Part shown: piece by piece, positions 145-58,112 of the stretch
Layout of the letters: each line of letters opens with the position of its first letter
How positions within the stretch are numbered: the first letter of the stretch is position 1
Sequence record: MF158046
DNA: 64,000 nt
Reading direction: 5' to 3' (one strand)
DNA from: Shigella phage Sf23
Notes under the pieces: model-generated
What the model saw: only the letters and a program-made list of their open reading frames with translations
The model's database searches: none
What the model was told of the DNA's origin: nothing
Made by a program: the position numbers and the translations under genes

Positions 145-642
145 TCAAATATTTTCTTTAGGACTTTCATTCATTTTACCTAAAACAATAGTAGGAGCAT
201 CGTCAAATTTATGAATTTTTAGCAAATTTGGAGTTAATTTATTCCATAAAGAAGTAATAAAATATGATAGCGCAATTTCTTCCGCAATTATGAATTTATT
301 TCCCTTATCTATTTTCCAGTCATGTACTGAATCATATGAATAGAAGGACAGCGGTTTATTGTTATAAAATGCTTCACCAACATCAATATAGTTAGATTTA
401 GTAAATGCTTGAATTGACGTAAATGGAGAATTTTGTACAGTTTCAATAATTCCGATCTTTTTAAGTTTTATTTCAACATCTTCTGGAACTGGCATTGAAA
501 TAAAATCTTCTACTAGATACATGCTATTGTCATATCTTTTGTCAATCATTACTGCTACAGTAATTGGAACATCCTTGACAAACGCCATACTAATACTATT
601 AATAAACATTTCAAACAAAATTGCTTCCATAATTTTCCTCAA
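145..642 (-). CDS. hypothetical protein (165 aa)
   Basis: Minus-strand ORF; start overlaps stop of upstream ORF 639..971 (ATGA-type coupling). No recognised motif. Confidence 0.5.
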
Positions 643-2285: not shown

Positions 2286-2486
2286 ATGGTACAAAAATTA
2301 ATGGCACTTGTTAATGCCATAAAAGGTAATAAAAAACGTATAGCTTTTACTATTTCTGCTATGGTAGGAATTTTACTCTGGAACTTTATTCTATCACCTG
2401 TTGCAATTGCGCATGGTATTAATATTCCAGTAGTTACTCTTGATACATTTGTAGATTTAGCATTTGCTTTAGTTGGGTTAATTTAA
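2286..2486 (+). CDS. candidate small hydrophobic protein encoded antisense to the gene array (66 aa)
   Basis: Plus-strand ORF exactly filling the 56-61 intergenic gap; AAGGAGG 6 nt before ATG; predicted TM segments. Overlaps a minus-strand middle-promoter-like element, so could be spurious. Confidence 0.3.
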   Translation: MVQKLMALVNAIKGNKKRIAFTISAMVGILLWNFILSPVAIAHGINIPVVTLDTFVDLAFALVGLI

Positions 2487-3511
2487 ATCTTAGCATATTT
2501 AGATAGCCGCATTTTAGCCATCAACCCCTGGGCAATATTATTTTTCATATATTCCATAATTTGTTCAGGGGTTGCACCTTCCTTTCTAATCATATCATTA
2601 ACATCTTTTGATTTCCAGGGAGATTTATCCCAAAACATAACCCTTTCTCCTGCATCAACTAATTTAGTCATTCGCTTAATAGTGTCAGGATGACGAGGTT
2701 CATTATCTAAGACCCACACACGCCTATCTTTAAATGGAACAACTTCTAGGTCTAATTGACCACCCGTAATAGCTATACCATTTTCAATAAAAAGCGAATC
2801 TATAGGTCCTTCTAGAACATATACATCACCATCTTTGACTCGTTCGACTCCATAGATTTTTGTTGCCTCAGGATAAGCTTTGATGGTGATATATTTTTGA
2901 GGAGCATCTTTCTTTAATGCACGTCCTTGAAAAGACTCAGCTTTTCCGTTAGCATTATAAATTGGAATAACAAGACGAGGCTCAGGTGTTTCCTTTTTAT
3001 ATGTTCCTGGAGCTATACTATTAACTAATTTAGGCCATTCAGTTGTAAACCAAAGATATTTCCATTTATCCTTTGGAATACAACGAGCTTTTACATATTT
3101 TATAATTGGATGGTCTTCCGCCAGTTTATCTAATCTAACACACGACGGAAGAGATTTAATTATTTTCTTCTCAGGTTGTTTAGGAAGTTCTTTAGGTTTT
3201 TCTACTGGACGACTTTTACCTTTTTCTTTTCTTATTTCAAAGATATACTCACGATATAAATCGGGTTCAAACTCCTTTAAATATATTCCGATTGGTGCAT
3301 GATAGTTACAGTTATAACAATGAATATTTCCTTCATTATTATCACCATAATACCATCCACGAGCTTTATTATGATCGGTTTTTGAATCTCCACAAACAGG
3401 GCATCTAAACCGCAATTTAAAAGTTGAACTATTGTTTACTTGTGTGAATTTAGGTAAATGAGCTAATGCACGATACGCAAACTCATTATCAATCCAAGGT
3501 ATTGATGACAT
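2483..3511 (-). CDS. 61: DNA primase gp61
   Basis: 342 aa as in T4 gp61; N-terminal zinc ribbon CPVCGDS...CYNCNYH; TOPRIM-like core; synteny with 41. Confidence 0.92.
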   Translation of the reverse strand: MSSIPWIDNEFAYRALAHLPKFTQVNNSSTFKLRFRCPVCGDSKTDHNKARGWYYGDNNEGNIHCYNCNYHAPIGIYLKEFEPDLYREYIFEIRKEKGKSRPVEKPKELPKQPEKKIIKSLPSCVRLDKLAEDHPIIKYVKARCIPKDKWKYLWFTTEWPKLVNSIAPGTYKKETPEPRLVIPIYNANGKAESFQGRALKKDAPQKYITIKAYPEATKIYGVERVKDGDVYVLEGPIDSLFIENGIAITGGQLDLEVVPFKDRRVWVLDNEPRHPDTIKRMTKLVDAGERVMFWDKSPWKSKDVNDMIRKEGATPEQIMEYMKNNIAQGLMAKMRLSKYAKI

Positions 3512-3513
3512 TT

Positions 3514-3678
3514 TTACTCTTCTTTTTCTTTAGATTCCTCTTTCTTCTTTTTAGGAATCTGTTCAGGACCTTTATTTACTACAGCGCCTGACGTTGTTCC
3601 AGTAGAGATATTTTCAGGATTACCACCTGAATCTCCAGCTACCATATCTTCTTTAATAAATTCTTTATATGTTTTCAT
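3514..3678 (-). CDS. small protein with internal-protein-like capsid targeting N-terminus (54 aa)
   Basis: Hand-translated ORF below the track cut-off: MKTYKEFIKEDMVAGDSGGNPENIST...KEESKEKEE; ATG 1 nt after the stop of ORF 3680..4036; N-terminus matches T4 IP capsid-targeting consensus MKTYQEFIAE. Confidence 0.45.
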   Translation of the reverse strand: MKTYKEFIKEDMVAGDSGGNPENISTGTTSGAVVNKGPEQIPKKKKEESKEKEE

Positions 3679-8558: not shown

Positions 8559-9407
8559 TTAATCAACTGCTATTGGATGAATAGCATTAAACTTATGAAA
8601 TGCTTCTGATTTTTCTTTACGTGAAACGCACATGCGAAGAACCTTTAATGGCTCGTCTTCTTCACCCAACGATTTTCGTTTTTCAATATTCGACGTTTTC
8701 CAACGAGCTTGCTCTGGAAACTCTCTATTGATTTGCTCAAGCGCTCTATTATGTTTAGAATTACTACGAATTGAACTACACCCACCAGGAGCTTGCGCTT
8801 TTCCAGATACAACCAGATATTTGAACAAGGCCAAATGCGGATAACCTTGATTAATTAAATTGAGAAATGCATACATATCTTCGCACAAATCAATTTTTCC
8901 ATACCCAATTTGTTCTGTCGTAAGTTTTCCAAGGTCATACCATGTATTCGTGAATCCATATGAATTTTCACGATAATTACCCCAAGATGAAGTAATTTTA
9001 AAAATTGGTAGGCGAGCATGACCGTGATAATACCCGCAATCCATGGCATCTTCGACGTATTGAATCAATTCATAGAACTGTTCATGAGTCAATTGATTGA
9101 CTTTATCCACGCAACGACGGTCATCTCTTTTTCGCATTGAACTCATACGAATAGTAGTATCATCGTCAATCATCCAGATTCGTTGGCCTGCATACATATC
9201 AGTAATTGCTTTACGAGTACCGGCAATTCCATTTACGTCATCAGGAATAGTTATAATTTTAGCTCTAGACCCATAGGCATCATAATAAGCTTTTTCTTCA
9301 TGTTCACGCACTACAATATGGGGTTCATAATCAGTCGGAAACATATCAAGGGCAGAAACTGCCCCGACACGCTGATAACTTGGAATTACGAATTGAATCA
9401 TTTCCAC
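8559..9407 (-). CDS. DNA glycosyltransferase at the beta-gt locus (not T4 Bgt-like; T2/T6-type beta-glucosyl-HMC-alpha-glucosyltransferase is a candidate)
   Basis: 282 aa (T4 Bgt is 351 aa); DxD-type motif MIDDDTT; located between uvsX and 42 where T4 has beta-gt. Confidence 0.55.
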   Translation of the reverse strand: MEMIQFVIPSYQRVGAVSALDMFPTDYEPHIVVREHEEKAYYDAYGSRAKIITIPDDVNGIAGTRKAITDMYAGQRIWMIDDDTTIRMSSMRKRDDRRCVDKVNQLTHEQFYELIQYVEDAMDCGYYHGHARLPIFKITSSWGNYRENSYGFTNTWYDLGKLTTEQIGYGKIDLCEDMYAFLNLINQGYPHLALFKYLVVSGKAQAPGGCSSIRSNSKHNRALEQINREFPEQARWKTSNIEKRKSLGEEDEPLKVLRMCVSRKEKSEAFHKFNAIHPIAVD

Positions 9408-20993: not shown

Positions 20994-21016
20994 GCTAAAG
21001 GGCCGAAGCCCTTTAT
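20994..21016 (-). terminator. hairpin terminator after a-gt
   Basis: AAAGGGCTTCGGCCCTTT overlapping the a-gt stop. Confidence 0.55.
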
Positions 21017-22215
21017 TTTGTAATAATGTCAAACTGTTCTTTAAAGCAGAAGCTTGAATCTTGGTGCTGATACAAAAATTCATATGCTTTTTCTCGCTCA
21101 CGGTCATAAAGAGTTCGGTCAGATGACAGTTCTTTAATACGTTCAAATGTTGATTCCATGTCATTTTCATCAAACCAAATGATACCGCTATCATGCGAGG
21201 TCAAAGGAGTATTATCAACACGGAATTTTAAATTTTCGCCAGTAGATTTCCAAAATACTGGAATTGTTCCACATGCACCAAGCTCGAGATGAGTATATTC
21301 TAAAGAACGTTGTAGATATTTTTTATCCAACTTACTCAACTGATAACCAAAACCGGATTTACTCATACGTTCAAGCATTTCGCTATTTACATAACGGTCA
21401 AGAATTTGCGTTGGCAAATTAGGAGCAATTTTAATTTGGTCTACTTGATGAAGACGATAATACTCGTATGGAATTCCTTTTTCTTTAATAGGAATGAACG
21501 CTGGAGAACGTTCCAGACCTTCCATAATAGTACTTAGTCCTGCAGGTTTAAGATGTTTTTCGTGAAAATCAAACATCTGATAAAAACCTTTCCATGTAGT
21601 CGTACGACCAATCCAACGGTTGATATTCATGTTAATTTCAGAAACATCTTTCCAGTAAGTTGACCGAACCTTCGCAATATCCATAGGAGGCTGAAAGTTA
21701 TATACGGTCGGTGCTTCTTCAATATCATCAAACAGAGAAACAGTTTCTGGATACCACTCTTTCATCAGAACTTTATTAAAATCACCATTATCAGAATGGC
21801 TAAAAATAACATCAGCTCGACGAACAGTTTCTTCTAATCCCAAATTTCGACGCAAAGAAAGAGAAGAATGGTCATGTTGATAAACTACAACACGAACAGA
21901 AGGTTTAATGTTATCAATAATTTTTTTATAGTTATTAATAGTGTCTTCTTCAACCGAAGTAGCAGGAACTGAATTGATAATTAGAATATCACAATCATTT
22001 ACCAGCTTAAATGTTTTATCATATTCTTTTGCCAATAAAACCGGAATTGAAAATGATTTATAATCATGCGCGCAATTACGAGTAAATGATTTATCTTTAG
22101 CATAAACCAAAGTTACTTCATGACCATTTTTAATAAACCAATCACGTTGCTCGAGTGAGAATTTTGTTACACCACAACCTTCAAGACCTCGAGCCATAAA
22201 AATACATACTTTCAT
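21013..22215 (-). CDS. agt: DNA alpha-glucosyltransferase
   Basis: 400 aa as in T4 a-gt; N-terminus matches recalled T4 AGT (CIFMARGLEGCGVTKFSLEQRDWFIKNGH). Confidence 0.9.
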   Translation of the reverse strand: MKVCIFMARGLEGCGVTKFSLEQRDWFIKNGHEVTLVYAKDKSFTRNCAHDYKSFSIPVLLAKEYDKTFKLVNDCDILIINSVPATSVEEDTINNYKKIIDNIKPSVRVVVYQHDHSSLSLRRNLGLEETVRRADVIFSHSDNGDFNKVLMKEWYPETVSLFDDIEEAPTVYNFQPPMDIAKVRSTYWKDVSEINMNINRWIGRTTTWKGFYQMFDFHEKHLKPAGLSTIMEGLERSPAFIPIKEKGIPYEYYRLHQVDQIKIAPNLPTQILDRYVNSEMLERMSKSGFGYQLSKLDKKYLQRSLEYTHLELGACGTIPVFWKSTGENLKFRVDNTPLTSHDSGIIWFDENDMESTFERIKELSSDRTLYDREREKAYEFLYQHQDSSFCFKEQFDIITK

Positions 22216-48359: not shown

Positions 48360-48833
48360 TTATTTGAACGATTTAACGTACTGAATAGAACCCTTACTAT
48401 TCACAAAGGCAATTTTACCATTTTTATTATACATGGTAGCAGTACGCTGATAACCATAGGTTTGTTTACCAGATTGATAACCAACTAATGCAAAATTATC
48501 TTCACCCATTTTATTCTGTTTAGCGCGAATGCGTTCATGACCATGTGCCATAAGAACCTTAGCATCACCAGTTGCAATGGATCGACGAGTTTTTTCATCT
48601 TCAACTGCATTAACAAAGTCGTCAAATGAATCAAATTTAGCATGAGATTTATTATACAATTTTCCATCTACTGCATAATTATATCCCTGTACATCCATTT
48701 CAACTTCTGTACCATCATCCAATACAGCAGTAATTTTTTGACCTTTTTTAAATTTCAAAAGATCAGTAAAAGATTCAGCAATAATTTGAGAATTAATAGC
48801 TGCTTCAGTGATAAATTCTTGATATGTTTTCAT
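48360..48833 (-). CDS. internal-protein-like capsid protein with capsid targeting sequence (157 aa)
   Basis: N-terminus MKTYQEFITE matches T4 IP capsid-targeting consensus with I-x-E prohead-protease site; basic body. Confidence 0.6.
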   Translation of the reverse strand: MKTYQEFITEAAINSQIIAESFTDLLKFKKGQKITAVLDDGTEVEMDVQGYNYAVDGKLYNKSHAKFDSFDDFVNAVEDEKTRRSIATGDAKVLMAHGHERIRAKQNKMGEDNFALVGYQSGKQTYGYQRTATMYNKNGKIAFVNSKGSIQYVKSFK

Positions 48834-53690: not shown

Positions 53691-53820
53691 TGTGAAAAAA
53701 TTTTTTAAAAAGTTTTAGGGAATTCTAGGGCAGGGAGGGGCAATTAAAAGATAGGATAATATATTATAAAGGGTAGAAACTAAATGATGCCTAGAGAGGC
53801 CTGGAAAGGCCTAGATACCA

Positions 53821-53847
53821 AAAAGCCCCAACCTTTCGGCTAGGGCT
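53821..53847 (-). terminator. rho-independent terminator after internal-protein-like gene
   Basis: AGCCCTAGCCGAAAGGTTGGGGC followed by TTTTT; near-duplicate of the 54375..54402 copy. Confidence 0.65.
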
Positions 53848-53854
53848 AAGAATG

Positions 53855-54328
53855 TTATTTGATTTGTTTAGCAGACCAAATGCGGTCTTTAATAATTTTT
53901 TGAATGTCTTCAACATACTCAAGAGAGTGAGCATGTGGGTTATCTTTGAAACTATAAGCACGAGCTAGTTTTTGGCCTTCAGTTTTGATTACTAAAAGCT
54001 CTTTAAGGATAGCTTCATATTTGGAGATAATTCCTTTAACGATATTTTTCTCTTGTGTGACTTTAGGATCTGCTTTAGGAGCAGGTTTACCCGAAGCCTT
54101 TGCAAAAGCAGCGCCAGTAGCAACTAAACTTTTCCAGGCCATACTAACTGCATTTCCCGTAAATCCTTCCGCTTTCATGTCACGTGCGAACTGGAATCGT
54201 GATTCATCAGAAGCATCTTTGTAAGAATATTTACCCGCTGCAATGGCTGCTTTTGCGACAGCTTGAATTTCGGTGCTAGACGCTTCATTTAACACCGCTT
54301 CATTTAAAAATTGAGTATATGATTTCAT
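53855..54328 (-). CDS. internal-protein-like capsid protein with capsid targeting sequence (157 aa)
   Basis: N-terminus MKSYTQFLNE (CTS-like, L-x-E site); own late promoter (54365..54372) and flanking twin terminators. Confidence 0.6.
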   Translation of the reverse strand: MKSYTQFLNEAVLNEASSTEIQAVAKAAIAAGKYSYKDASDESRFQFARDMKAEGFTGNAVSMAWKSLVATGAAFAKASGKPAPKADPKVTQEKNIVKGIISKYEAILKELLVIKTEGQKLARAYSFKDNPHAHSLEYVEDIQKIIKDRIWSAKQIK

Positions 54329-54364
54329 CTTATTTCCTGTTTTAATTTGTAGATTTAATATACT

Positions 54365-54372
54365 TATTTATA
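54365..54372 (-). promoter_or_regulatory. late promoter for internal-protein-like gene 53855..54328
   Basis: rc is TATAAATA, about 36 nt upstream of the ATG, just downstream of a terminator hairpin. Confidence 0.6.
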
Positions 54373-54374
54373 CT

Positions 54375-54402
54375 AAAAAGCCCCAACCTTTCGGCTGGGG
54401 CT
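54375..54402 (-). terminator. rho-independent terminator closing the tRNA/stable RNA operon
   Basis: AGCCCCAGCCGAAAGGTTGGGGC followed by TTTTT. Confidence 0.65.
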
Positions 54403-54718
54403 AAGCCTTGCGGCAACCTTGTCGGGGTTCCACCTGCTAAGGCAAGTGTTTGTACGAAACGCCGGGATTCGAACCCGGTTATCAAGCAGTTGACGCTACT
54501 CAATATTTTTAAAAGGCCATATCTCGACCATATCCGAACGTTCCGTCAAAAACGCTACTCGGCTTACGGCAAAGATATTTCCTCGAATCGATAATTCGGT
54601 GCGCCGTTTCTGCTGTGATGTAAGGGGGCATTAACCGATCGTAAAGATTTGTTAATGCCAGTCCTTACCCAGGGAACATCAGTCCGACGACTTACCGGTA
54701 GCGACCCGGCTTCTTGTT
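54403..54718 (-). ncRNA. candidate small stable RNA region (T4 species 1/2 rnaC/rnaD-like)
   Basis: ~316 nt non-coding stretch between tRNA-Arg and a terminator, GC-richer than surroundings, with a tRNA-like T-arm CCGGGTTCGAATCCCGG (rc of 54460..54476). Ends not determined. Confidence 0.35.
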
Positions 54719-54794
54719 TGGTCGAGGCAGTAGGGATCGAACCTACGACCTAGGACTTAGAAGGTCCTTGCTCTTCCTTCTGAGCTATGCCTCG
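54719..54794 (-). tRNA. tRNA-Arg (anticodon UCU)
   Basis: Hand-folded cloverleaf: acceptor CGAGGCA/TGCCTCG, anticodon loop CTTCTAA, T-loop GGTTCGATCC, CCA encoded. Confidence 0.8.
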
Positions 54795-54798
54795 TATT

Positions 54799-54873
54799 TG
54801 GCGGACGTGATAGGATTCGAACCTATAACCAATCGCTTAACAGGCGATCGCTCTGCCATTGAGCTACACATCC
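54799..54873 (-). tRNA. tRNA-Asn (anticodon GUU)
   Basis: Hand-folded: acceptor GGATGTG/CACGTCC, anticodon stem ATCGC/GCGAT with loop CTGTTAA, T-loop GGTTCGAATCC, CCA encoded. Confidence 0.75.
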
Positions 54874-54877
54874 AAAT

Positions 54878-54964
54878 TGGTGGGGAGTGATGGAGTCGAA
54901 CCACCCGAGTCGCAATGACAATGGATTTACAGTCCACACCGCTACCTCTACGGGATAACTCCCC
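54878..54964 (-). tRNA. tRNA-Tyr (anticodon GUA), class II with long variable arm
   Basis: Hand-folded: acceptor GGGGAGT/ACTCCCC, anticodon loop CTGTAAA, long variable arm GTCATTGCGACTCGG, T-loop TTCGACT, CCA encoded; resembles E. coli tRNA-Tyr. Confidence 0.75.
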
Positions 54965-54976
54965 TAATTCATAATT

Positions 54977-55051
54977 TGGTGGCCCTGGGTGGAATTGAAC
55001 CACCATCTGGCGATTATGAGTCGCTTGCTTGAACCTTCCAGCTACAGGGCC
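54977..55051 (-). tRNA. tRNA with CAU anticodon (Ile2/Met type; T4 tRNA-Ile position)
   Basis: Hand-folded: acceptor GGCCCTG/CAGGGCC, anticodon loop CTCATAA, T-loop GGTTCAATTCC, CCA encoded; 1 nt from tRNA-Thr. Confidence 0.75.
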
Positions 55052-55052
55052 T

Positions 55053-55128
55053 TGGTGCTGATTGACGGAATCGAACCGCCGACCTTCTCATTACAAGTGA
55101 GTTGCTCTACCTACTGAGCTAAATCAGC
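55053..55128 (-). tRNA. tRNA-Thr (anticodon UGU)
   Basis: Acceptor GCTGATT/AATCAGC, anticodon loop CTTGTAA, T-loop GGTTCGATTCC, CCA encoded. Confidence 0.8.
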
Positions 55129-55133
55129 AAAAC

Positions 55134-55223
55134 TGGCGGAGGCGATAGGATTTGAACCTATGAGTCGCCGGAGCGACTGCCGGTTTTCAAGACCGGTGCA
55201 TTAAACCACTCTGCCACGCCTCC
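55134..55223 (-). tRNA. tRNA-Ser (anticodon UGA), class II
   Basis: Acceptor GGAGGCG/CGCCTCC, anticodon loop CTTGAAA, long variable arm, T-loop GGTTCAAATCC, CCA encoded. Confidence 0.8.
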
Positions 55224-55225
55224 AG

Positions 55226-55299
55226 TCTCCATACAAGGATTTGAACCTTGGACCTCCTGATCCCAAATCAGGCGCTCTACCAAACTGAGCTACACGGAG
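55226..55299 (-). tRNA. tRNA-Pro (anticodon UGG)
   Basis: Acceptor CTCCGTG/TATGGAG, anticodon loop TTTGGGA, T-loop GGTTCAAATCC; no encoded CCA; 2 nt from tRNA-Ser. Confidence 0.8.
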
Positions 55300-55309
55300 T
55301 AAATTAAAT

Positions 55310-55383
<74 letters not shown>

Positions 55384-55388
55384 AAATT

Positions 55389-55475
55389 TGGTGCGAGAAG
55401 TGGGACTCGAACCCACAAGGAAATCATTCCGCAGCATTTTAAGTGCTGTGCCTTTACCAATTTGACCATTCTCGC
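55389..55475 (-). tRNA. tRNA-Leu (anticodon UAA), class II
   Basis: Acceptor GCGAGAA/TTCTCGC, anticodon loop CTTAAAA, long variable arm, T-loop GGTTCGAGTCC, CCA encoded. Confidence 0.8.
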
Positions 55476-55476
55476 G

Positions 55477-55549
55477 CTGGGAATAAAGGACTCGAACCTT
55501 TGCATCCTGGAATCAAAATCCAGTGCCTTACCAACTTGGCTAATTCCCA
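55477..55549 (-). tRNA. tRNA-Gln (anticodon UUG)
   Basis: Acceptor TGGGAAT/ATTCCCA, anticodon loop TTTTGAT, T-loop GGTTCGAGTCC; no encoded CCA; 1 nt from tRNA-Leu. Confidence 0.8.
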
Positions 55550-55635
55550 ATTATTAACAAAGGCTCTCAAGCAAGAACCCTTGATGATAGAGGGTATTAA
55601 TCAGTGCGGTATGAGTTAATAATAACAAATAATTC

Positions 55636-57019: not shown

Positions 57020-57075
57020 TCTCCTCAGTAGTTGATAGGGTAATAGTATCACTACTAAAACCCCGTGTAAACAAC
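57020..57075 (-). promoter_or_regulatory. early-type promoter
   Basis: GTAAACAACTTTGTGAAATTATTTT and TAATAGTATCAC on plus; twin of the 57375 copy. Confidence 0.5.
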
Positions 57076-57084
57076 TTTGTGAAA

Positions 57085-57342
57085 TTATTTTAAATCTTCT
57101 AATCGTTTCTTCATCTTAGAACCATTTTTAGCGATTTCTCCTGCGTCAGAGCATAATGCTAAAAGTGCTTTAACTTTAGTTTGGTCTCCTTTAAAAGACG
57201 AAGGATCGACTGCAGCAGCAAGTTCTTTAATACGAGAGAAAAGACGCTCAGCTTCAGCTAAAGCCATTCCAAGCTTTACTTCCATACCATGAGAAGATTC
57301 AGTGATAATAGTTTCTGTAGCAAACTCTTTATAAGTTTTCAT
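57085..57342 (-). CDS. internal-protein-like capsid protein at the ipI locus (85 aa)
   Basis: N-terminus MKTYKEFATETIITE (CTS-like, I-x-E site); adjacent to 57B where T4 carries ipI. Confidence 0.6.
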   Translation of the reverse strand: MKTYKEFATETIITESSHGMEVKLGMALAEAERLFSRIKELAAAVDPSSFKGDQTKVKALLALCSDAGEIAKNGSKMKKRLEDLK

Positions 57343-57372
57343 TTTATTTTTCCTAATTAATTTTGATGAGGT

Positions 57373-58112
<740 letters not shown>

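Follow-up and report, generated by a model that had tools for sequence, protein, structure and literature searches.

Ip5, an internal protein of Shigella phage Sf23 encoded by an interchangeable cassette at the ipI locus: a candidate strain-specific counter-defence factor

The short open reading frame located between genes 57B and trna.4 of Shigella phage Sf23 (sequence record MF158046; the stretch analysed, 64,000 nt long, is referred to here as the window) is ip5. The ipI locus houses internal protein cassettes that can replace one another, and ip5 is the allele of the T2/T6 type. The ip5 product is probably packaged, processed and injected, and probably counteracts a host defence in a strain-specific manner, with a target in E. 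coli CFT073; the probability of this reading can be put at roughly two in three. Capsid targeting, cleavage by the prohead protease and injection are steps that we infer by analogy with the T4 internal proteins. A role as a strain-specific counter-defence factor appears the most likely one, given the precedents within this class of proteins and one indirect, unvalidated dataset. Neither Ip5 nor the organisation of the ipI locus into cassettes is new: both have been on record since the 1990s, and the gene is already named in GenBank.

Results

The gene next to 57B encodes Ip5

An earlier note on this DNA, made from the sequence alone, described an 85-aa open reading frame next to 57B and took its product for an internal protein with a capsid-targeting sequence, encoded at the ipI locus. 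The open reading frame was found exactly as noted, preceded by an AGGA ribosome binding site, and the targeting sequence, an I-x-E motif (ITE) and the locus were all as described. The gene and its closest neighbours on the upstream side are:

57085..57342, minus strand: ip5 coding sequence, 85 codons plus a TAA stop, with an ATG start (open reading frame listing, PHROG 3499, Ip5 homologues, dN/dS)
57351..57354, minus strand: Shine-Dalgarno sequence AGGA, 8 nt 5′ of the ip5 ATG (direct reading of the sequence)
57416..57871, minus strand: 57B, coding for the anti-CBASS nuclease Acb1 (Pfam PF23474 Acb1, E=2.6e-60; PHROG 755)

The 85-aa protein translated from the window starts MKTYKEFATETIITESSHGMEV and has RLEDLK as its C-terminus. 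Gene 57B lies immediately upstream of ip5, the locus being the slot between 57B and trna.4, and beyond 57B the genes 57A, 1, 3 and 2 follow in the order found in T4. A known counter-defence gene (57B/Acb1) therefore adjoins ip5. At the DNA level, the segment 56400-58200 of the window showed 100% identity to the Escherichia phages vB_EcoM-Sa45lw and JY01; with RB51, AR1 and wV7 the figure was about 99%. The phage is accordingly a Tequatrovirus that belongs with these.

Several database entries give the protein its name. An identical protein of phage RB51, ORF146, is annotated as ‘Ip5’, similar to Ip5 of T6, T2, RB15 and RB70 and to RB69ORF127c, and another that is 100% identical, Sa45lw_152, carries the annotation ‘putative internal head protein IP5’. 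‘Ip5’ is also the UniRef name of the T2 and RB70 (Q38378) proteins, which show 95–99% identity to that of the window, and RB32 is a further phage with a gene annotated as Ip5. The whole protein (residues 1-85 of 85) matched PHROG 3499, ‘internal head protein’, with E=3.7e-50. The Ip5 proteins of T2, T6, RB15, RB70, RB32 and RB51 are thus the same protein as that of the window, and they share its locus, flanking repeats and propeptide. In the window and in Bas37, ip5 was found together with a T2/T6-type β-α-glucosyltransferase, two single cases; T2 and T6 combine the two as well.

When the mature part of Ip5 (residues 16-85) was compared by tblastn with 50,697 phage records, 493 were matched. 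Identity was at least 99% in 230 of these, with T6, RB32 and RB3 at 100%, and the T2 protein fell just under this band with 98.6%. Another 226 of the 493 were about 54% identical over the aligned core and corresponded to the RB69ORF127c type. Ip5 is carried by some 267 phage records, and the body of T4 IPI* by 292; the two are thus of similar frequency, and Ip5 is not a rare variant. The earlier note had viewed the product of the open reading frame as a divergent internal protein. The gene is not a divergent or novel IPI but a non-homologous cassette that was already named Ip5 in RB51, in Sa45lw and in the UniRef entries for T2 and RB70, so that its novelty had been estimated too high.

The family is all but absent outside such phages: among 1.84 billion representative proteins, a profile search picked up only three Ip5 clusters, which leaves the protein without distant annotated relatives that could lend it a function. 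Pfam and NCBIfam held no family for Ip5, and a sequence search of the PDB gave no match. A literature search with the name ‘Ip5’ found nothing on the phage protein, the papers retrieved dealing mostly with inositol phosphates.

The RB69ORF127c-type proteins of the Mosigvirus phages (∼94 aa) are true distant homologues of Ip5, 39–47% identical over a full-length alignment. Ip5 and these proteins have two motifs in common, KLGxAxxEAxxLxxRIxELA in the core of helix 1 and EIAKNGS…RL towards the C-terminus, and the RB69ORF127c-type proteins likewise have a capsid-targeting sequence of their own, with an LNE or LAE site. Their C-terminus is longer, and their genes lie at the other internal protein locus, which in RB69 is the site between e and denV; some of these phages also have an IPI-type gene.

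Selection on ip5

The window and T2 alleles of ip5 differ by 12 synonymous and 3 non-synonymous changes (dN/dS 0.06). Comparison with the allele of phage ECML-359 gave a dN of 0.087 and a dN/dS close to 0.02, with dS saturated, and comparison with RB69ORF127c gave a dN/dS of about 0.25. The values of 0.02–0.06 denote strong purifying selection and hence a functional gene. The evolution of ip5 proceeds through cassette exchange, not through rapid point substitution. Near-total conservation of the sequence, as found for Ip5, is unusual for an arms-race protein.

The ip5 cassette is bounded by promoter/stem-loop repeats

Two 69-nt direct repeats (family D1), 86% identical and located 331 nt apart, delimit the cassette. 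Their components are:

57363..57431, minus strand: upstream cassette-boundary repeat, 69 nt, with the last codons and stop of 57B, an early-promoter-like site and a 13-bp stem-loop
57402→57374, minus strand: promoter-like site of the upstream repeat, TTTACA-17-TACTAT with an upstream TG (promoter scan)
57364-57393, minus strand: 13-bp stem-loop of the upstream repeat, -17.4 kcal/mol, z=-4.2
57032..57100, minus strand: downstream cassette-boundary repeat, 69 nt, with the last codons and stop of ip5, a promoter-like site and a weaker stem-loop (-15.4 kcal/mol, z=-2.4)
57071→57043, minus strand: early-promoter-like site of the downstream repeat, serving trna.4, TTTACA-17-TACTAT with an upstream TG

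In each repeat the hairpin overlaps the -10 element. Since each repeat also includes the last codons and stop of the gene located upstream of it, 57B and ip5 both end in …DLK. The upstream repeat is near-identical in T4. Elements of the PeSL type, based on T4 early promoters, have been described at two highly variable internal protein loci, the proteins themselves having ‘more than 30 known variants’ (Arbiol et al. 2010, PMC2839356); these authors credit the architecture of the loci to Repoila et al. 1994. The ip5 cassette is bounded in the way described for such hyperplastic loci, with repeated early-promoter/stem-loop elements on both sides.

The content of the locus differs among relatives. 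The window has a single cassette, while T2 has ip5 followed in tandem by ip7 (‘internal head protein 7’), and Bas37 and Bas42 have ip5 followed by a gene for a 77-aa protein with a capsid-targeting sequence, bas37_0260 in Bas37, where three copies of the repeat are present. In the Gaprivervirus ECML-359, ip9 precedes ip5.

Propeptide and predicted mature protein

The protein can be divided into two parts:

57298..57342, minus strand: propeptide, residues 1-15, MKTYKEFATETIITE, a capsid-targeting sequence ending at the predicted gp21 site I-T-E↓S
57088..57297, minus strand: predicted mature Ip5*, residues 16-85, 70 aa, 7.5 kDa, pI 9.2, all-helical (AlphaFold2)

The N-terminus MKTYKEF fits the pattern M-K-T-[Y/F]-x-x-F of capsid-targeting sequences through Tyr4 and Phe7; positions 4 and 7 are the determinants of targeting according to the work of Mullaney and Black (summarised in PMC9026906). 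Residues I13-T14-E15 form an (L/I)-x-E motif of the kind recognised by gp21, and the Ip5 propeptide could be aligned with that of T4 IPI, MKTFKEFTSTTTPVSTITE, in such a way that I13-T14-E15 falls on ITE19 of IPI. The capsid-targeting sequence with an I-x-E protease site that had been proposed from the sequence is therefore borne out. In the case of IPI, cleavage after ITE19 is documented, since the chain in PDB 2JUB, the only solved IPI structure, begins at residue 20 (T4 IPI matches it over residues 20-95). Cleavage of Ip5 after Glu15 (I-T-E↓S) is proposed by analogy. The ITE site is kept in all Ip5 alleles, including a shorter one in which it ends at residue 10 (MQTYQTFITE↓SSHG), and this shorter allele places the conserved mature N-terminus at Ser16. 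The window protein differs from those of T2 and Bas37 by three substitutions, Y4F, E10K and I12T, all of them within the propeptide, which is the only variable part of Ip5.

The AlphaFold2 model of Ip5 had a pLDDT of 85 overall and of 89–96 over residues 21-85, with helices predicted at about residues 17-44, 54-63 and 67-84. At residues 12-14 the pLDDT was below 50, which suggests that the cleavage region is flexible. Helical hairpins or bundles of the kind predicted are generic, and the fold gives no hint of function. The mature protein is basic, with a C-terminus rich in Lys and Arg. A search of the accessible literature for virion proteomics covering Ip5 found none, the HY01 paper having dealt only with five major bands.

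Two further [LI]xE motifs, L-A-E30 and I-K-E40, are invariant across Ip5 and its RB69-type homologues of 40–50% identity, and gp21 is known to process gp22, gp67 and gp68, all proteins of the core, into several fragments (PMC9026906). Ip5 might accordingly be cut at these positions as well, ending as short internal peptides instead of as a folded 70-residue protein. We consider this very unlikely, since both motifs sit in a helix predicted with high confidence (pLDDT 93–96), unlike the disordered region around ITE15; further, strong purifying selection acts on the whole 70-residue body and not on fragments alone.

Ip5 and T4 IPI share a propeptide and a locus but not a mature domain

T4 IPI (PDB 2JUB) occupies the same slot between 57B and trna.4, between the same type of promoter/stem-loop flanks. 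The two proteins are similar in size and pI, have homologous propeptides ending in ITE, and presumably follow a common route of packaging, processing and injection. These features could be taken to mean that Ip5 is a diverged orthologue of IPI with the same task, namely the inhibition of a CT596-type GmrSD. The similarity, however, stops shortly after the cleavage site. BLASTP aligned Ip5 with T4 IPI over residues 1-22 only (E=0.002), the aligned N-termini being MKTYKEFATET----IITESSHGMEV for Ip5 and MKTFKEFTSTTTPVSTITEATLTSEV for IPI. A tblastn search of the window with IPI* gave no match, and a phmmer search of the PDB with Ip5 did not find 2JUB at E≤10. When the DNA was compared with the T4 locus, near-identity extended from the end of 57B through the intergenic region into the first codons, and the bodies of the genes could not be aligned; identity to T4 resumed at the ip5 stop codon and ran on into trna.4. 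The two proteins belong to different families, PHROG 3499 for Ip5 and PHROG 4363 for IPI. In addition, Ip5 is predicted to be all-helical, whereas IPI* is an α/β protein in which helices at the N- and C-terminus flank two β-sheets.

The earlier note had remarked that the body of the protein did not match T4 IPI, a remark that these comparisons confirm, and had suggested a structural comparison with IPI*, whose fold differs from the one predicted for Ip5. The alternative that the open reading frame is simply IPI was rejected, given that the mature domains are unrelated in sequence and the predicted folds differ. With homology and fold both refuted, and with phages that carry Ip5 still being restricted by the CT596 GmrSD that IPI* inhibits, an orthologue of IPI with the same task is extremely improbable.

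Ip5 and the GmrSD enzymes

Three internal proteins of T4, Ip1, Ip2 and Ip3, each inhibit a distinct type IV restriction enzyme of the GmrSD family, without cross-protection; Ip2 inhibits GmrSD-ECOR21 and Ip3 inhibits GmrSD-ECOR17 (Silas et al. 2025, PMC12373910). Ip2 and Ip3 bear capsid-targeting sequences, are injected, and are encoded at a hyperplastic internal protein locus, each one acting on one defence variant, and they serve here as the working model for Ip5; they differ from it in that their genes lie at the other internal protein locus and in that the similarity is limited to the capsid-targeting sequence.

In the same study, where eight systems were active in the assay, ip4-10 showed no reproducible inhibition of the additional active GmrSD variants (PMC12373910, section 10 and Supplementary Fig. 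9; the ‘ip5’ of that panel was matched to the present gene by name). Phages T2 and T6 are restricted by the GmrSD enzymes of ECOR21 and ECOR17 (PMC12373910), as well as by the CT596 GmrSD and by the ‘UT’ enzyme of UTI89 (PMC4437046). Since T2 and T6 carry Ip5, it neutralises none of these four enzymes, and it does not replace Ip2 or Ip3. Restriction of T2 by the CT596 GmrSD is relieved by IPI* (PMC4437046, Table 3). The protection against type IV systems that the earlier note had envisaged thus finds no counterpart in the published GmrSD data, which are negative both for the ip4-10 panel and for T2 and T6. Its broader proposal, an injected anti-defence protein acting on something different from the target of IPI*, stands as a reasonable candidate, although the GmrSD variants of that panel seem not to provide the target.

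Insertions in the Bas37 orthologue are depleted on E. coli CFT073

Phage Bas37 (MZ501089) carries an orthologue of ip5, bas37_0261, whose product is 96% identical to that of the window over its full length; in the mature part the identity rises to 100%. Insertion data for this gene are contained in the supplementary Tn-seq tables of the HIDEN-SEQ preprint (bioRxiv 10.1101/2025.11.20.689424), where log2 fold changes (log2FC) are expressed relative to strain BW25113. The values for bas37_0261 are:

K-12 reference library: 18 of 18 TA sites hit; non-essential
BW25113 (control): mean insertion count 263.4
CFT073: mean 61.0; log2FC -2.09; adjusted p reported as 0.00000; one of 14 significant genes
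CFE299: mean 261.4; log2FC -0.01; p=0.98
CFE303: mean 262.4; log2FC -0.01; p=0.99
CFE336: mean 315.7; log2FC +0.26; p=0.78

Disruption of bas37_0261 therefore had a modest fitness cost, of about 4-fold, on the uropathogenic strain CFT073, and no cost on K-12, CFE299, CFE303 or CFE336. The main text of the preprint does not mention bas37_0261, and the CFT073 signal is neither discussed nor validated there.

The neighbouring genes are relevant to how this signal is read. The two genes downstream, bas37_0260 and bas37_0259, showed no defect on CFT073, which excludes a polar effect of ip5 insertions on them. The gene upstream, 57B/Acb1 (bas37_0262), was also depleted on CFT073 (log2FC -1.56, adjusted p 0.003). 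The depletion of bas37_0261 might thus be due to an effect in cis on the transcription unit formed by 57B and ip5, for instance on Acb1 expression or mRNA stability, or else to noise, and not to the loss of Ip5; the signal comes from one competitive Tn-seq experiment reported in a supplementary table, with 17 TA sites and no follow-up by the authors. However, a polar effect of ip5 insertions on 57B is impossible, 57B being the upstream gene of the two, and the milder depletion of 57B fits a polarity of 57B insertions on ip5. In addition, noise is hard to reconcile with a place among the 14 significant genes at the adjusted p value given above, and the same control library yielded a log2FC close to 0 on three other strains. 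An origin of the signal in cis effects or noise is on these grounds distinctly unlikely.

The gene next to ip5 in Bas37 has a different phenotype. Bas37_0260 (77 aa, MKTYQEFIAE…), a protein with a capsid-targeting sequence whose gene comes right after ip5 at the ipI locus of Bas37 and Bas42, is an McrBC inhibitor (HIDEN-SEQ preprint, bioRxiv 10.1101/2025.11.20.689424). Its phenotype was seen on McrBC+ K-12, where ip5 insertions are neutral, and its match to Ip5 is limited to the first 11 residues, that is, to the capsid-targeting sequence; no homologue of its body was found in the window. This protein shows that the type IV enzymes open to attack by cassettes of the ipI locus are not confined to GmrSD. 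That Ip5 itself could be the McrBC inhibitor of Bas37 was considered and rejected, the inhibitor being the adjacent 77-aa protein.

A general role in the phage head?

Ip5 could also be a general head-filling or DNA-associated protein without a specific host target, contributing to charge neutralisation, core assembly or DNA ejection. The pI of 9.2 of the mature protein and its Lys/Arg-rich C-terminus would suit such a role, as would its very strong conservation, the negative results of the GmrSD panel and the dispensability of ip5 on K-12. The T4 internal proteins are likewise basic, are present in about 300 copies each and were assumed to interact with DNA, and the loss of IPIII slows head assembly (PMC9026906). 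A role of this kind, however, predicts an equal effect on all hosts, and a depletion seen on CFT073 only, with neutrality on K-12, CFE299, CFE303 and CFE336, is hard to square with it. Further, the cassette is freely swapped for unrelated proteins, and all four proteins of T-even phages with a capsid-targeting sequence and an assigned target (Ip1, Ip2, Ip3 and Bas37_0260) inhibit type IV restriction enzymes. A general head role without a host target seems, on balance, unlikely.

Candidate targets in CFT073

The immigration-control region of CFT073 does not have the mcrBC/mrr arrangement of K-12. The strain carries instead a DUF262 fragment and a gene annotated with a ‘GmrSD restriction endonuclease domain’, a type I system of the EcoAI type and a further DUF262 protein of 550 aa, all of which are candidate targets. 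A GmrSD homologue of CFT073, c5421, is listed in PMC4437046. The only CFT073 system cloned by the authors of the preprint is SanaTA (bioRxiv 10.1101/2025.11.20.689424). Among the DUF262/GmrSD-family genes of the immigration-control region, C_RS25630 or the pair C_RS30460/C_RS30465 may encode the target of Ip5. More specifically, Ip5 may be an injected inhibitor of a CFT073 defence system outside the GmrSD variants characterised so far, be it the product of a DUF262/GmrSD-family gene or a non-GmrSD system, a proposal that we put forward tentatively.

Discussion

In the mechanism that we favour, in which Ip5 is an injected counter-defence factor, the 85-aa precursor would enter the scaffolding core of the prohead by means of its N-terminal capsid-targeting sequence, and the prohead protease gp21 would cut it after Glu15 (I-T-E↓S), as T4 IPI, IPII and IPIII are targeted and cut. 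The resulting 70-residue, basic and predicted all-helical product would be kept among the packaged DNA and injected with it, in analogy with the T4 internal proteins; a protein injected with the DNA can act before any phage gene is expressed. The target would be present in uropathogenic E. coli CFT073 and be absent or irrelevant in K-12 and in the clinical isolates CFE299, CFE303 and CFE336, and it would lie outside the set of GmrSD variants examined to date. Ip5 would most likely bind a host nuclease stoichiometrically and thereby inhibit it, the nuclease being one that attacks DNA containing glucosylated hydroxymethylcytosine.

Besides T2 and T6, the carriers of Ip5 include hundreds of phages that are candidates for therapeutic use. 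The published negative results with GmrSD enzymes narrow the search for its target, and an unremarked row of a public Tn-seq table points to CFT073, which makes the proposal directly testable. Should Ip5 prove to be an inhibitor of a CFT073 system, this would provide the first target for the commonest internal protein not found in T4, and would extend to the T2/T6 lineage the rule of ‘one injected protein, one restriction variant’.

Cassette boundaries and the internal-protein set

The neighbouring gene 57B and ip5, the gene for the 85-aa internal protein, have the same final residues because the 69-nt boundary repeat takes in the last codons of both. At either end of the ip5 cassette the substrate for recombination thus includes codons: those of the capsid targeting sequence (CTS) on the 5′ side and the last ones on the 3′ side.

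57416..57431 and 57085..57100: shared 3′ ends (…DLK*) of 57B and ip5, within the 69-nt boundary repeat

A second internal-protein gene was present in the window. It adjoins denV, at the ipII/ipIII locus, and its counterpart in phage Sa45lw is annotated as ‘putative Ip4’.

48360..48833 (-): gene for a 157-aa internal protein beginning MKTYQEFITEA…; matches PHROG 3155 (‘internal virion protein’) at E=1e-101

Neither an IPI body nor a body of the Bas37_0260 type was found within the window. With this Ip4-type gene in addition to ip5, the recognisable internal-protein set within the window, on a search that covered IPI and Bas37_0260, is therefore Ip4 plus Ip5. Bas37_0260 is a published inhibitor of McrBC (bioRxiv 10.1101/2025.11.20.689424). 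Phage Bas37 carries both ip5 and the Bas37_0260 cassette, while the window phage lacks the latter; a gene of the same type was also found in phage Bas42.

Bas37 (MZ501089) 354-587 (-): Bas37_0260, 77-aa CTS protein beginning MKTYQEFIAETADVKVEF…, second cassette, downstream of ip5
Bas42 1792-2025: 77-aa CTS gene of the Bas37_0260 type, second cassette downstream of ip5

Other ORFs with CTS-like starts

A further ORF with a CTS-like N-terminus is a candidate for an internal protein so far unrecognised.

53855..54328 (-): 157-aa ORF, N-terminus MKSYTQFLNEAVLNEASS, two L-N-E sites
54365-54372 (-): late-promoter box TATAAATA, perfect match, ∼37 nt upstream of this ORF
53815-53850 and 54370-54405: GC-rich hairpin direct repeats (36 nt, 94% identical) flanking this ORF

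It belongs to PHROG 2280, a family of unknown function, and was found in 510 phage records; among the matches listed, 30 out of 30 were labelled ‘hypothetical protein’. With e.8 on one side and the tRNA cluster on the other, it is in neither classical internal-protein locus, and its position is one at which T4 has no gene.

Another CTS-like start was observed far from every internal-protein locus.

3514..3678 (-): 54-aa ORF starting MKTYKEFIKE, perfect CTS with an I-K-E site; PHROG 1823, a family of unknown function

Its CTS is followed by a low-complexity tail rich in Lys and Glu. The ORF lies directly upstream of a 342-aa ORF (2483..3511), which we take to be the primase gene 61; this would place it at the 61.1 position of T4.

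Comparison with related phages

Sa45lw is 100% identical to the window around ip5. Across the tRNA region (window 54300-55600 compared), the coordinate offset between the two shifts by ∼555 bp; the window is therefore not Sa45lw along its whole length. A further hotspot for indels is the tRNA/segB-like region.

Two glycosyltransferase genes were identified.

8559..9407 (-): glycosyltransferase, 282 aa, TAGT family, beside uvsX; PF20691, E=1e-9
21013..22215 (-): α-glucosyltransferase, normal; PF11440, E=1.6e-236

In place of a β-glucosyltransferase of T4 size, the window has the TAGT-family enzyme, and the genes look like a T2/T6-type β-α-glucosyltransferase set. A βα-gt gene is present in Bas37, likewise an Ip5 carrier. 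Glucosylation genes of the T2/T6 type appear to be common to the two phages, despite the absence of Bas37_0260 from the window phage.

Candidate targets in E. coli CFT073

In the immigration-control region of uropathogenic E. coli CFT073 (NC_004431.1 5162679-5173048), other genes replace mcrBC/mrr.

Split pair of DUF262 and GmrSD-endonuclease-domain genes, one part annotated as a pseudogene
Type I R-M system, EcoAI-family
Separate DUF262 protein, 550-aa

These three are candidates for what makes ip5 matter on CFT073.
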